Shown: positions 5,701 through 58,657 of the stretch, in pieces
Position numbering within the stretch: the first letter of the stretch is position 1
Layout of the letters: every line of letters begins with the position of its first letter
Source of the DNA: Octopus vulgaris
Lineage: Eukaryota
Length of the DNA stretch: 64,000 nt
Assembly (NCBI GenBank): GCA_951406725.2
Contig: OX597827.1
Location: forward strand, 65,100,001-65,164,000
Reading direction: 5' to 3'
Position numbers and translations under genes: made by a program
Notes under the pieces: generated by a model
Database searches by the model: none
Told to the model about the DNA's origin: nothing
What the model saw: only the letters and a program-made list of their open reading frames with translations

Positions 5701-8263
5701 TTATTCATTCAGATGTATGTACTCTTAACAATAAAATAGGAAATGAGTTGTTTCCTTATGAAAGACTGGAAATCAAACATCGTATAGGATTCTAAGTCCA
5801 TACAAGGAGATGAGGTTGGGTTAAACCAATATATGTTTCTTTTTCCAGATTTAATATTTAGGAGGGGCATGTTCCACCACATGTTTTAGTTTTGCTATGT
5901 AATTGCTTGGTATTGTGAACTATTACTGTTTTCTGTATCTGTTGCTAAATATTTGCTTATAGCTTAAAGAGATATAATTTTTGTCCTTGTCAAAAAGATG
6001 CCTCTTTTCTGAAGAATCCAATACTCGTAGGACAAATAGAGAATAAGTTACAAAAATCGATATATGGAAATATTCTCAGCAAATAAACTAATAAAGATCG
6101 TACAATGAATCTGTAGCGACAACAAACTTCTATGTTTGAACTTCGTTTAACCTGCTGTGAAGCCAAAATTTCTCTGAGCTAGTACAGACGCTAGAAAGTT
6201 TCATAAAATATACGTTCCTTTGAATACTGTCCGTCGCTATTAATTCGATCCATATGGAAAGAATAAATTCCTTTTTGCAACCGTAACAAAACTGACTAAG
6301 CAGTAAGTGTTCTGTTATTATATAATTACCATATTATAACATGCAGAATGAATTAACTTTCCTCGCCTATCTACAGACTGGCTTTATACGTAACAGTAGA
6401 AAAACGTGACTGGCAGATCGCGTATTACATTCTCCGCAGCCTACAACTATTCTTCTTAGACTGGTTTTATACGTTGCTTTTCATAGCTATTAAAAACACA
6501 GTTCTCACATGGTTAGTTCCTATAATCGAAGAACGTTTTTTCAGTAACAGCGTCTTTCGACTACTTAGCTACGAACAAGGCTAAGCAAAGCTCATAGAAA
6601 ATAAATAGAAACAATTAGTAAGATTTTATTTTTTACATGCCGTTTACTGGGATCAATCCCAAAATTTATGAAACATCCAATTCTTATACACCATAATATA
6701 GAAGCATAGCTGGTCATCCTCTACCAGTCTCTAATGAATTTTGTATTGTATAGATTTGAAGAAGAACTATGTAAAATGAAAAAAAAAATTTGCTGGGATG
6801 ACCAAAAACAAAAACCTTCGAAAACCGATAAATTCAACGCAAATGTTCTTTCTGTTGTAGGACAGAATGTATATGTACGCCATTTTTATGGCAGCTGAAC
6901 AACTGAAATAAGAAGAATTTCTAAACTACGGGGAGAATTGCAGTGAAGGTGATATCGCATAATTTAAAAACGCAATTTAAAATCAGGTTCCAGAAATTCG
7001 CATTAGAATACTAATAGAAAATCTCACAAATGGAACGAAAACATGTTTTATTGTGATACAGCTGATTAGAGAACTCGACAAACATGAAATGAAATAATGT
7101 CTAGGGCAATTAAATGGTATTGATTTTAAATCGATTATTTTCTTTTTAATGATCATTTTGTTGCTGAAATGAATTTTGCAATTATTCTAATCAGGGAATT
7201 CTGTAAAAGAATTTATGAATAATTAGAAATTATTTAAAGCTATGACCAAAATCATTTACGGAACATTTAGGGTAAAAACGTGTTTGATGAAGGTTGTTCT
7301 TTGCCACCAAATGTAGGAAGGAGTCGATGTTTCATCAGGCAGTAAATCTCCTCCGTAAGCGATTGGGTCCCTCCCACCGCGACTCTAGAGCTGCTTGGGA
7401 TTCCCCACCGATGTAGGCGATACAACTCCCACAGTACTGCATGAGCTATATTAAGTGAGGTTTTACCATTTTTCTACCATACTTAATGCGCGTTCTAGCT
7501 GCACCATTCGTGTTTTCTTGATCGATATCTATTGAGAGAATCAATTTCGAATCTCAACTTAATTTCCAAAAGCCTGAGTACCTGCAGCATTTTAGCACTT
7601 TTCCATTCAAATGGCGAGCAGCTAGTCTTTCACTTAACAATAAAGATCTCTTCGTGTTGCCTAAAACAGATGGAGTAGCTATTAATGGACAAAAATAGCA
7701 TATATAGGGTTCAATAAAAACTCATTCGAAGAGCGATAGACGCAGGGCAGTGCGTTTATTCGCTTAGATACATCAGGAAACATAAATCCACATAATTATC
7801 AGAGTATATATGGCAGTTGAGCCACAGCTGACGAAAATAATTGCATAATCGACTAGTTCACATTTTCTGATTCGACGACATACAGTATGTACGGCAACAG
7901 CTGTATATTAAAAGGCAATATAAATTAAAGATAGAATAACGGGCTTTAGTTATATAAATATTCATATAAGAAATTGCAATTATAAAAATCTGGTATTCAT
8001 AAAATACGTTCCTTTCATTAAAAAACCTATTTTTAGTGCATTTCAGGAGTTGTCGCAATGTTACAACCTTTGTATGTATGTTGTAATTTTTTAAAATTCT
8101 ACAAGTAACAATCTTCATTTCTACTTCGCTAATAAACGCGTCGCACCGCATGTATGTATTAAAAAGCCCAAGCTTATATAAGAAGGAACATTAAATATAT
8201 GAATATATTTACATCGAAATTTCCTATTTCTAATTAATTATAGATATCGATGTCAATATATGC

Positions 8264-11668: not shown

Positions 11669-12160
<492 letters not shown>

Positions 12161-12304
12161 GGTGTACATTTAAACACAAAAGAAAACTACCTTTTATAGG
12201 TAATTTTTACACGCTAGAAGACACAGTCAAAACGACCAAAACCACATTTTAAGAGCAATTTTCGAAGGGAATGAAAAATAAAAACTTTTACCTAGTTATC
12301 TTTT

Positions 12305-12377
12305 ACGGTCATACCCAGGTTTCAGATTATTTTAGCAAATAAATTATTTTGCTAGGAGAATCTTCATCAGTAACCGT
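12305..12377 (-). ncRNA. Type I hammerhead ribozyme
   Basis: Minus: ACGGUUA CUGAUGA AGAUU..UAGCAAA..UUUGCUA..AAUCU GAAA CCUGG GUA UGACCGU. Intact core, 7-bp stem I. Confidence 0.88.
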
Positions 12378-12745
12378 GCCTTAACAATTAACATATAATT
12401 TAGAGGCAAATAACACGCATCTCGTCATTATATTTTGTAATTTTTCAAAATTCACCGCGCAAGCACAGTTTCAGTCGAACTTCGAAAAGCTGGAATCAAA
12501 TTTGTAAAAACTATATAGAGTGGTGAATATTCTTAGAAATTTCACCAGCAGTGGCCTAGCATGTATAAAATGTCAATAGACAACGTATTCTCAATATAAA
12601 ATAGTTTACATTTAAACACAAAAGAAAACTACCTTTTATAGGTAATTTTTACACGCTAGAAGACGCAGTCAAAACGACCAAAACCACATTTTAAGAGCAA
12701 ATTTCGAAGGGACTGAAAAATAAAACATTTACCTCGTTATTTTTT

Positions 12746-12818
12746 ACGGTCATACCTAGGTTTCAGATTATTTTAGCAAAGAAAATAATTTGCTAGGCGA
12801 ATCTTCATCAGTAACCGT
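12746..12818 (-). ncRNA. Type I hammerhead ribozyme
   Basis: Minus: ACGGUUA CUGAUGA AGAUU..AAUCU GAAA CCUAG GUA UGACCGU. Stem III is the perfect palindrome ACCUAGGU. Confidence 0.9.
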
Positions 12819-13555
12819 GTAAGCATATGTAAGCATATGAATATGAAAAATAAACAGAGCAACATAGAGACGGATAGTTACATAGGTTATATGAATATAC
12901 AAGCACACATGCGCAAATGGAGACTGAAACACATGATCATATATATGCACATTTTAATTCACACAAGGACACATATGGAGACGTGCGTCCACACTTATGG
13001 TGAAGCACATCCATACATAGAAACATGGTACATAGTTGCAAAACACACACTCACACAGACATGCACGCACAAGGAGACAGAAGTGCATAGATATACAAAC
13101 ACACGCTCACACGCACGCGTACATAAAATATACACAAACACGGACATGCAAGCACATGGATATGCACAATACATACATACAGATGCACACACATACATGC
13201 ATATATACATATGCATACACACACGTATATACATACACACATGCATAGATACATACATATATACATAGATACATACATGCATGTATGCATAGGTACACAC
13301 ATGCACACTGACCCACGAACATGCGCACAAACAAAAAGGTTGCGAGACGTAACGAAAATTTTAGAAAACATTAGGAATTAGGAATAAGTGGAAATTTTAC
13401 CGGTGAGTGTGTTAAATTATAAGGCACAAAAAGAAAATGAGTCTCCCTAGATACAACAGTATATATATAGGGAGAAGTCACAAAAAAAAAGACGTAGACA
13501 TGTGGTGTAGACAACAAGCAGATGTATTAGTTTAACACTCGGGAAGAGAAAAAGT

Positions 13556-29607: not shown

Positions 29608-29700
29608 GGGAGCGATATGATTCACTCACGCTATCACTCTAATTTCTCCTTTCTCTTTGGAAGTGTGCAACGATTAAAGTGAAAACAGTGAATCCGACAG
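29349..29700 (+). mobile_element. Probable Helitron 5' portion, directly after another Helitron-like 3' end
   Basis: Starts A|TCTCTTATTATAAAAGG; preceded by hairpin ATCCAC-TAGA-GTGGAT and CTAG|T at 29341-29345. Confidence 0.5.
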
Positions 29701-29716
29701 CGATAAAGAAAATGAA

Positions 29717-30322
29717 TTGGCACCTGAATGGAGTGAAAATTTAAAAACTGTTTCTTTCGGTGATTTTTCTGAAGAAACTGGACCAAGCCACAGACTTTCC
29801 CAGAAGAGTAAAGCCTTAGACTATTTCTATTTACTTTTTCGAATGAGCCCATTTGAAATCATTACGGCGGAAACGAACTGTTACTCTAAACGTAAACAAA
29901 GCGAAAGAAAGGATAGTTTGTTATTTCCCACAACCTTAAATGAAATTAAGGCCTATTTTGCCATAAATATTATTATGGGTATCAGAAAGTTCTATCGTAA
30001 AATTTTGTTGTATACCCAATTGAATATTAGCTAATAACCCATTTTCTATAGCGATGTTTGAACAAAATTTTAATAATTTTATATATTGTTGAATTTACCT
30101 GTATCTACCTGCAATTAGAGTCACTTTGTGACAAAAATTATAGTATAGAATTGGTTGAGAACATTTTATTAAATTATCTTCCAAAATTCATGTTAATATA
30201 TTGATAAATAAAAAAGTTATAGTTGTTTAATGAAACCAGACTAACTTTATGATTACGTTAGAAATTAATTGAAACACATAAGGGGTGTATTTTGGTCAGA
30301 AATATAGTAGCGAAAGGGTTAA
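29717..30322 (+). mobile_element. piggyBac transposase fragment (PGBD-like) and piggyBac right end
   Basis: FSEETGP..ALDYFYLLF..EIITAETNCYS..PTTLNEIKAYFAINIIMGI resembles the N-terminal part of piggyBac DDE transposases; terminus AGGG-TTAA at 30315-30322. Confidence 0.8.
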
Positions 30323-45819: not shown

Positions 45820-46912
45820 ACATGTAACTATCAAAAATGTATACATATTTTTATACATTTATATATGTGTGGGTGTGTGTACACCCCATCATACTCATAC
45901 GCACGCACCCCACATACTCATGTATGTTTTGTATGTATGCATATATCCTTTATCTTTGTGTGTCTGTGTTTGACGTTTGTACAGAGGATAATAATGTGTA
46001 TTCATAATGCTAAGTTTGAAGTCGTTTGATAAATAACCTGTGCTAATGGAATAGTTATGTGGTTTTTAGAGCCATTGGGCATATATTTCTAGCGGATAGG
46101 TGTGGTAAATTCGCACCCTTTGCTATAATTATAAATTTAGCATAAAACATTACGTAAAATGTTTTATTTCACGCTTGCCACTTGAGGAAATCATTGAAGT
46201 GATTTTATTCTTAATTCTATAGAAAGAAAAAAAAAACATTTGCTCCAAATAAAATCGCATTTGCTGCGGGGTTATTTTGATAAAACAAAAGAAAAAACAT
46301 GCTGTTGAGATAAGAAGATAAATTGGATTTTTACTAGTATATACGTACAAATCTATGTATATGGTCGTACCACTTTGATGTTCGTATGGGTGTGTATAAA
46401 TATTTGTATGTATGTGCTTGGATACATTTTACTGAAGATAACAAGGTGTTTTCTTAACGCTAAGTTTGGAATCGTTCACTATACAATTGATCAAAAGGTG
46501 TCATTTATTTTTTCATGTGTCCGATTACAACCTGTACTAATACAGTAGCGAGGTGGCTATTAGAGCCATCTTGCATCTATTTCTGGCGTGTAGGTGTGGT
46601 AAATATGCACCTTTAATATAATTATCCACATGATTATAAATTTAGCATAAACTATTACCTACAAGAGTTTAAATTTTCCTTGGACATTTGATAAACTCAT
46701 TAGAGTGATTTTATCCTTAATTCTATATAAAGAATATATACATATCTATGTGCACGCACACATACACACATACATATACTCTTATTAAAGCTGAAAAAAT
46801 ATCACAAGACTGTTACTCTTAGTTTCACGTTGCCGTTTATGGAACGATTATGATTGTGTAGTGTGTGTATATCAGTGAGCGTGGGTGTGTTAACATATAT
46901 ATATATATATAT

Positions 46913-47542
46913 ACGAGAAAGAAGCAACAAGAATGGATTGGTTTTTAGTACAATTGTTTCATACAAAGACAGGCTTTATTACAAGTTGCAAAAATTGCAG
47001 CAGATAAAAGTGTCCCGTACTCATCAGCTAAAATACATTTGAGTTCTCTAGACATCTTAGTGGGTGAGGTTATACTCATGAAATATTGGAGATAGTTCCA
47101 TTAGAGGCAGATATAGGTTGTAAACAGCTTTCCAAAGTTCCTTAATGATGATGCACAGTCTTATCACAGATTTTTAAAAAACTTATTAGTTTCGAAGAGA
47201 AGATGAATCAATCCATAGTGTAGATTTAAATTTCCAGAGATATGAGGAGGATGATGCACAGACTTATCACAGGTTTTTAAAGACTTATTAGCTTCAGAGA
47301 AAAGGTGAATTAATCCATAGTGAAGATTTACATTTCCAGTGGTAAGATGAGGGATTTCATACTCACAGACGATGTATTTAACCATTATTAATCCACAATC
47401 ATTTCATGCTATATGATAAGGTAATTTGCCATGTTATTGCTGCACTTTTATCTGCTGCAATTTTTGCAACTTGTAATAAAGCCTGTCTTTGTGTGAAACA
47501 ATTGTACTAAAAACCAATCCATTCTTGTTGCTTCTTTCTCGT
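46913..47542 (-). mobile_element. PLE-like element with 100-bp inverted repeats and a hammerhead
   Basis: 46913-47012 is the reverse complement of 47443-47542 (1 mismatch seen); internal ~102-bp tandem duplication; abuts (TA)n. Confidence 0.8.
46943..47033 (-). ncRNA. Type I hammerhead ribozyme with extended stem II
   Basis: Minus: UUUUAG CUGAUGA GUACGGGACA..UGUCUUUGUAU GAAA CAAUU GUA CUAAAA; stem III palindrome ACAAUUGU. Confidence 0.85.
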
Positions 47543-47663
47543 TTAAAATCACCCCACATTACTGTATGGATAACACCATATAGTTTTTTCTGGTGCATCT
47601 AAGTTAAGTACCACATTCAAGTAAATTCATTGGAAGTTACTTGAATCTTAATTGCTTTGATTA

Positions 47664-56252: not shown

Positions 56253-56256
<4 letters not shown>

Positions 56257-56545
56257 TAATCAAGGAACGGCCATAATAGGCCATTCACCCACTAGAAATA
56301 ACAGCCAAAAGCTTTATTTCTTACTGATGAATCTAAGAGCCTATGGTAGATTGGCTTGATTTAATTTAATCAGGTTAGTTTTCCATTAAACAGTAGATGA
56401 AACGGTGCATCGTCTAAGAAATTACAGGGTAAATATTTTTTAATTTTCTCCTGGTTTACGGAATTGACATTATTTTGCGGTTAAAGCTTTTGGCTGTTAT
56501 TTCTAGTGGGTGAATGGCCTATTATGGCCGTTCCTTGATTGTGAT
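56253..56545 (+). mobile_element. PLE-like element with 64-bp inverted repeats enclosing a hammerhead
   Basis: 56253-56316 is the reverse complement of 56482-56545 (1 mismatch); begins directly after (TA)n. Confidence 0.8.
56316..56422 (+). ncRNA. Type I hammerhead ribozyme with long stem II
   Basis: AUUUCUUA CUGAUGA AUCUA..UAGAU GAAA CGGUGCAUC GUC UAAGAAAU; perfect 8-bp stem I, GUC cleavage site. Confidence 0.92.
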
Positions 56546-56642
56546 GTTGAACTTAAAAATGGTTTATGACTATTTAATTTTTTCCCACTAGGCCGCTGGT
56601 GGCAAAAGAATTCTACAAAATTTTTTTGCCACCCTATATTGA

Positions 56643-56697
<55 letters not shown>

Positions 56698-58247: not shown

Positions 58248-58657
58248 CTTATTTTTTATTGCCCACAAGGGGCTGAACATACAGGGGACAAGCAAGGACA
58301 AACAAAGGGATTAAGTCGATTATATCGACCCCATTGGATAACTGGTATTTAATTTATCGACCCCGAAAGGATGACAGGCAATGTCAACCTCGGCGGAATT
58401 TCAACAAAGATGGTAACGGCAGACGAAATAGCTATTTCTTTATTACCCACAAGGGGCTAAACACAGAGGGAACAAACAAGGACAGACATAGGTATTAAGT
58501 CGATTACATCGACCCCAGTGCGTAACTGGTACTTAATTTATCGACCCCGAAAGGATGAAAGGCAAAGTCGACATCGGCGGAATTTCAACTCAGAATGTAA
58601 CGGCAGACGAAATACCGGTAAGCATTTCGCCCGGCGTGTTAACGCTTCTGCCAGCTC
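58248..58657 (-). mobile_element. Family A SINE, partial dimer
   Basis: Two reverse complement units (58248-58430 and 58433-58657). Confidence 0.85.

Follow-up and report, generated by a model that had tools for sequence, protein, structure and literature searches.

The window, a 64,000-nucleotide stretch of the Octopus vulgaris genome, carries on its minus strand two hammerhead motifs with predicted cut sites 441 nt apart, which raises the question whether this locus is a template for a non-coding circular RNA and which enzyme copied it into its site. We suggest that it is very likely an aged 1.5-unit copy of a ~461-bp non-coding repeat, probably a non-LTR retrozyme copied in trans by a Penelope-like element (PLE) into a (TA)n run, a reading drawn from sequence comparison.

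Layout of the flagged locus

The features of the locus are as follows.

12152..12819, minus strand: whole insertion, 1.5 head-to-tail units (unit 1-441, then 1-226), its last ~12 nt merging with the (TA)n target
12048..12158, no strand: (TA)n/(GA)n microsatellite target at the insertion's 3' end, where site A was used
12746..12818, minus strand: hammerhead 1, type I (stem I 12818-12812 / 12752-12746; CUGAUGA 12811-12805; GAAA 12764-12761), predicted cut after 12753
12305..12377, minus strand: hammerhead 2, type I (CUGAUGA 12370-12364), predicted cut after 12312
12312..12752, minus strand: monomer of 441 nt predicted from the two cut sites (family unit ~461 nt)
12594..12604, minus strand: internal copy of the 3'-end site A, unit ~226, TATTTTATAT, putative start site of the reverse transcriptase (RT); 80 of 179 family segments end at unit 214-248
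12511..12593, minus strand: 'tail' between sites A and B, unit ~227-309
~12511-12520, minus strand: site B; 70 of 179 family segments end at unit 295-331
12470..12489, minus strand: junction of a private ~25-nt deletion; the hairpin lost with it occurs in the other copies and in the sister family
12220..12235, minus strand: predicted to base-pair, in the full precursor, with hammerhead 2 (its 5' strand and core), a possible anti-ribozyme

The initial annotation described ~214-bp direct repeats around a unique segment. The repeats are real (12165-12378 and 12606-12819, 214 bp each, with 227 unique bp between them), and the layout is a full unit plus a half unit of one tandem repeat, not a pair of LTRs. 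The repeats differ at 13 of 215 columns, the boundary column included; of the 12 internal differences the stem II extension has four, loop III one and the catalytic core none. The earlier remark that the differences spare the core is thus correct as a count, and it was dropped as a sign of selection, chance giving the same result about half the time (0.944^12 = 0.5).

The ends are as first described: the base of stem I marks the 5' end (12819), and on the 3' side the element runs into (TA)n at 12048-12158. No open reading frame exceeds 40 codons stop to stop in the element (longest frame 40 codons), no tRNA was found in the flagged repeat, and no target-site duplication of more than 4 bp is discernible at this copy, whose 3' end sits in a microsatellite. 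About 25 nt near 12478 are missing, and with them a conserved hairpin; 55 of the 56 spanning segments do not lack them in full, partial losses being 12 nt in three segments and 7 nt in one. The 441-nt spacing is therefore private to the flagged copy, through this deletion from the ~461-bp family unit. A 10-bp tandem duplication (12820-12839) lies directly at the 5' end of the element, and the DNA beyond it (12843-13100) is itself a high-copy repeat.

Both motifs predicted earlier, type I hammerheads on the minus strand cutting after 12753 and 12312, were found by the motif rule, with CTGATGA at 12811 and 12370 and GUA at the predicted cut sites. The order is ACGGUUA / CUGAUGA / stem II / GAAA / CC-NN-GG / UA, cut / UGACCGU. 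Stem I, the open stem, has 7 bp, stem II has 5 bp plus a 7-bp hairpin extension, and stem III consists of A-U plus 2 bp closed by a 2-nt loop (ACCUAGGU, a palindrome, and ACCUGGGU). Hammerhead 1 has a long stem II and a palindromic stem-loop III with loop UA, where hammerhead 2 has UG. The predicted minimum free energies (MFE) are -16.5 and -16.6 kcal/mol, the MFE fold being without stem III. The element has two consecutive complete hammerheads below -5 kcal/mol, as in the 'active' rule of Li et al., although its second unit is partial. A folding z-score was tried as a sign of a structured circle and dropped: the value of -3.9 was equalled by two of five flank controls, and the L002 unit gave only -1.5.

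An old family, its insertion ends and a young sister family

Genome DNA searches with the flagged unit gave 2,868 and 3,537 first-look candidates, the best 40 being scored in each, and together with three pattern searches they yielded an old-family sample of 179 segments at 119 distinct loci. Segments diverge from the column majority by a median of 7.3% (n = 117, from the first 69 loci) and the 34-nt ribozyme pattern has only 31 exact matches in the genome, both indicating that the family of the flagged copy is old. The ~461-bp unit was derived from L002 and L009. At least 440 nt of contiguous unit are contained in 45 of the 119 loci (longest 920 nt), so that the unit map closes on itself without an ORF. 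This agrees with the earlier view of a non-coding, retrozyme-type element with one hammerhead per unit. As to tandem arrays, for which it proposed a genome search, the tandem junction recurs across many old-family loci, and tandems reach about two units at most among the 119. Identity of tandem repeats is 0.904 within loci vs 0.877 between loci; 28 of 34 within-locus repeats lie above both means, and just three at or above both best outsiders.

The ribozyme was aligned over 81 copies, L044, L029 and L058 being omitted from 84 rows for abnormal mapped lengths. In its stems 92.2% of cells are paired, with swaps of G-C and A-U in stem II (40 vs 35) and of U-A and C-G in stem I. Cells changed on both sides number 48 vs 23.3 in shuffles; pairs with two-sided change number 5 vs 5.7, without excess, and the aligned copies are kin.

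The 3' ends of the 179 segments fall into 80 at site A (unit 214-248), 70 at site B (295-331), ~85 nt apart, and 29 elsewhere; both sites are TA-like and internal to the unit. TA repeats were found at the junction of 132 of the 150 A or B ends vs a 15% background, a somewhat generous count because the test string took in the last 8 nt of the element. The 5' ends are scattered, with clusters also at hairpins; ten of 179 segments have the 5' end at stem I vs 3.5 expected, only a weak hot spot, since the first query itself started at that point. Tail-out inverted pairs, their two 3' ends facing away from each other, were detected at 46 loci or sub-loci, 30 of them classifiable: 26 AB, two AA and two BB (n=30; p = 3e-5). 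Fifty-odd loci had been picked by the A or B pattern, which fixes one end and leaves the partner end free.

The tail at 12511..12593 holds a CTAGGCC..CACCCTATAT motif common to a young sister family, a copy of which lies 44 kb from the flagged copy.

56253..56650, plus strand: sister copy, both arms ending in (TA)n
56316-56650, plus strand: its main arm, unit 1-334, hammerhead CTGATGA at 56324
56316-56253: its inverted arm, unit 166-229

The sister unit measures 488-493 bp, the top copies are 98-99% identical, and several subfamilies stand at 85-98%. The 489-bp unit aligns to the old unit at 61% identity over 359 columns (E 2e-14), with a hammerhead of different sequence at the same unit position. 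The tail pattern common to both families has 2,537 exact genome matches (control 0), and the first 100 listed are all sister-like. Arms reach up to 11 units in the sister arrays (including L219-L238 and L299-L318). Inverted loci are 29 of 40, their ends being AB (229 and 334) in 26, AA or BB in none, and B with another end in three; AB pairs thus make up 52 of the 56 classifiable inverted pairs over both families.

Several sister arrays are uniform in their private variants, across arms as well (L300, L301, L302, L304). L302 has eight segments with five fixed private letters and lies 1.9% from the nearest other locus, and L300 and L304 have private variants common to both arms, as would be expected from one template read repeatedly. 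In the youngest arrays mismatches within and between are alike (2.11 vs 2.41). Variants with a three- or four-unit period in L219, L301 and L302 (also L300) were considered as proof of multimeric circles and dropped, as the period stops before the array end; this break points to block duplication after insertion or to misassembly, a multimeric template also being listed as a potential cause. Array length alone is therefore no proof of a rolling circle.

A third TA-flanked type I hammerhead element was observed at 46910-47660 (minus strand; CTGATGA at 47027, cut predicted after 46949). Part of it is repeated in inverted orientation near 47440-47520, and 47147-47339 holds a duplication of 102 bp; blastn detected no relation to the flagged family. 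Further unrelated type I hammerhead motifs are present in L011, L124, L128, L129 (as an inverted pair) and L132, and the genome seems rich in hammerhead elements of this kind. Contigs of four sequence runs (two guessed to be RNA) contain short pieces of related copies and no joint, pieces with loose ends pointing to more sister families; none of the runs recorded as RNA is listed as holding the flagged stretch. In 20 of the 65 long window frames, scanned with Pfam, no host domain was found and one transposase fragment was (29681-30034, plus strand, DDE_Tnp_1_7, piggyBac-type, E 1.3e-6). Two-copy tandem repeats of 184 and 130 bp, SINE-type in look, lie at 58250-58614 and 1791-2045.

Penelope-like elements and known retrozymes

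A PLE protein is known to cut and extend both target strands, starting at two internal RNA sites that bound a tail (PMC11167929), a two-site tail described as unique to PLEs (Frangieh et al., PMC11167929). The accessible text of Craig et al. 2021 (PMC8557442) also describes PLE insertions whose 5' copy is inverted and which have the tail on one end. The old-family copies carry this two-site tail signature, and the family further has the 5' truncation, inverted 5' copy and microsatellite target of PLEs. The earlier proposal of mobilisation in trans by a PLE reverse transcriptase thus gains support from the tail signature, the inverted pairs and the (TA)n target, all read from sequence. PLE mobilisation of animal retrozymes has so far been argued from co-occurrence and pLTR relatedness, going by the available parts of PMC7229834 and 10.64898/2026.07.22.740005.

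Autonomous PLEs co-occur in this genome. We detected a young resident PLE (L151-L154) with an intact 781-aa RT + GIY-YIG ORF, the four ORFs being 96.6-99.5% identical; it has a CX4CX2C linker and would be Neptune-like by motif alone. Its copies run out in (TA)n, some after a 38-nt tail and some directly; among 30 tailed copies two inverted partners are visible, and neither has the tail. The element also has an open frame of 327-401 codons further upstream and, ~100 nt before its 3' end, a degenerate hammerhead-like motif. The resident 781-aa PLE is a candidate partner; blastn found no DNA similarity of either unit to the 3' regions of 45 fetched PLE loci, and none of these shares sequence with the unit as a named autonomous partner would. 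In L167 (65164001-65174000), which starts where the window ends, decayed PLE endonuclease and RT fragments lie at 262-492 and 6060-7013, >50 kb from the flagged copy.

By sequence features, the flagged element falls under the definition of an animal non-LTR retrozyme and outside those of the autonomous PLE and the plant LTR retrozyme. Like animal non-LTR retrozymes, as far as described in the text available for PMC7229834 and 10.64898/2026.07.22.740005, it is built of AT-rich units without coding capacity, a few hundred bp long, which repeat head to tail and each hold one type I hammerhead; a weak palindromic helix III (as in axolotl), PLE co-occurrence and many dispersed copies of monomer size are further likenesses. 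The unit of 441-461 bp (sister 490) exceeds the 170-400 nt of animal retrozymes in the accessible part of PMC7229834, and is within the 51-972 bp range of 10.64898/2026.07.22.740005. Unlike animal retrozymes, the octopus family has a helix II ~40 nt long and no Rfam match. The octopus families are set apart by strict targeting of (TA)n, by inverted pairs and by two-site ends, no such description for retrozymes being found in the available text of the same two sources.

The likeness to EN+ Neptune-type PLEs, so far as PMC8557442 and PMC11167929 describe them in their accessible parts, includes partial tandems, 5' truncation, the inverted 5' copy, the one-end tail, microsatellite bias and a hammerhead upstream of the RT start sites. 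The octopus families differ in having no RT or GIY-YIG ORF, the flagged element lacking the single RT + GIY-YIG ORF of an autonomous EN+ PLE, and in a ribozyme with helix III; their tail is 85-105 nt vs 30-40, and their ends have TA microhomology, whereas the PAc start site is not homologous to the cut DNA (PMC11167929). Non-autonomous Chlamys PLEs (MRC1) are similarly non-coding and PLE-mobilised, with pLTR-like repeats and multicopy head-to-tail insertions, but according to the accessible text of PMC8557442 they share 3' sequence with autonomous families, of which no case was found here, and mostly lack hammerheads. Plant LTR retrozymes, as partly available descriptions have them, likewise have two ribozymes flanking a non-coding segment; theirs are type III, with true LTRs, PBS/PPT and a 4-bp target-site duplication, where the flagged element is a type I, permuted tandem.

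Our literature search found no description of cephalopod retrozymes or of a retrozyme tail signature; the supplements of PMC7229834 and 10.64898/2026.07.22.740005 may list families. A term search of the accessible text and supplement of the octopus repeat annotation (PMC13282606) gave no mention of ribozymes.

Proposed mode of copying and its alternatives

In the proposed mechanism, the PLE endonuclease would cut both strands of a (TA)n run and each target 3' end would prime cDNA, two RT subunits starting at internal sites A and B by short TA microhomology. The template RNA would be a circle or an uncleaved multimer, on which the RT would run upstream through the ribozyme into the previous unit, and the two cDNA arms would be joined or one arm would survive alone. 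The flagged locus would be a single A-ended arm, stopped at the base of the second ribozyme crossed. We lean slightly towards source copies that gave ribozyme-cut monomers which circularised, and multi-unit homogeneous arms may favour circles. On the other side, eight of nine Xenopus retrozyme dimers did not cleave in vitro (10.64898/2026.07.22.740005). The circle is not required for mobility, since the PLE RT used unprocessed RNA in vitro (PMC11167929).

The families could instead be non-autonomous PLEs whose template is a linear tandem transcript left uncleaved, a reading that keeps the enzyme and changes the template. The ribozyme would then do no more than trim the 5' end, and no circle would enter the cycle; we consider this possible though short of probable. 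Unprocessed RNA served the PAc RT as template, and insertion persisted in ribozyme mutants, ribozyme cleavage being dispensable for PLE insertion in vitro (PMC11167929). Many long old copies have their 5' end at unit 75-122, a short way downstream of the upstream cut site, which five loci alone (L001, L002, L009, L011, L014) extend past; these stops would favour cut linear RNA, but long copies were sampled by score, and hairpins are a further place where 5' ends cluster. Arrays also grow by block duplication. Against this reading, the young insertions, with several units on both arms and common private variants, would require long uncleaved source transcripts, and related animal retrozymes form circles in vivo, according to the accessible part of PMC7229834.

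That the flagged locus is itself a working source of a 441-nt circular RNA we regard as unlikely, and it is equally doubtful that the copy makes this circle now; it is probably a fossil. It is alone among the 119 loci in having two intact same-strand hammerheads, but two hammerhead positions are present in just five loci and one doubly intact locus of five fits plain decay, because cores are intact in 56 of 84 old-family copies (a share biased high, 30 loci having been picked through the core pattern). Folding predictions, made without tertiary contacts, point both ways. Stem I forms with high probability (0.45-0.99) in contexts limited to at most 250 nt upstream and 22 nt downstream, as in co-transcriptional folding, and the stem III loops of the two ribozymes can pair as a dimer (-11.1 kcal/mol); the axolotl motif, in the available text of PMC7229834, is dimer-dependent with a similarly weak, palindromic helix III. 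In the full precursor, however, hammerhead 2 is predicted to be mis-paired, its stem I displaced by 12220-12235, and forcing both ribozyme folds costs 14.5 kcal/mol. Copies also stand 7% apart, the hairpin deletion is private, and no element sequence that could promote transcription lies upstream of stem I; as the copy begins at stem I, monomer production needs read-through from flanking DNA.

The unit is very unlikely to be the pLTR of a longer coding PLE with ORF-bearing copies missed, the outcome that the initial annotation had named as contrary to its own reading. Such copies might escape a survey in which the best 40 candidates were scored per DNA search, and the relatedness of Xenopus retrozymes to pLTRs (10.64898/2026.07.22.740005) makes pLTR descent plausible; the unit map, however, closes on itself in 45 loci. 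No autonomous partner linked to the unit was found by the GIY-YIG family (PF01541), flank tblastn or blastn, and no PLE ORF is contiguous with the unit at any of the 119 loci, the protein queries being Neptune-like only. Matches to PLE proteins were found in the flanks of four searched family loci (L048, L081, L111, L181), none contiguous with the unit, and the sister arrays have no adjoining match, one distant flank match excepted.

That the repeat is SINE-like or a satellite, with a local tandem duplication and a hammerhead resemblance due to chance, is highly improbable and already largely refuted: Rfam, at gathering and E-value thresholds, matched no hammerhead family at the flagged copy, but the motif rule gave four matches in the 64-kb window, all in TA-flanked repeats, vs none in 60 shuffled windows, the full core, three stems and compensatory pairs are present, the sister keeps a differently sequenced hammerhead at the same place, the tandem junction recurs in many loci, and no tRNA was found.

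In these octopus families the PLE-specific two-site tail is carried by the insertions themselves, with one site per arm in nearly every inverted pair. This one-site-per-arm rule constrains how a PLE dimer primes two target strands, which is testable with the published in vitro assay, and together with the young sister family, a better experimental object than the flagged fossil, and the resident PLE it makes the question of the retrozyme partner directly testable. Tentatively, the two families may be a lineage of ribozyme RNA circles, long parasitic on a TA-targeting PLE and swapping ribozyme sequence, whose insertions record two-site priming by a dimeric RNP: one dimeric PLE RNP would prime both cut target strands at two different, fixed start sites on a circular template and roll out two multi-unit arms. 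If so, the young sister family would be a parasite still living beside its host, the intact resident PLE, and the two would allow a first direct test of which enzyme mobilises animal retrozymes and of whether its template is circular.
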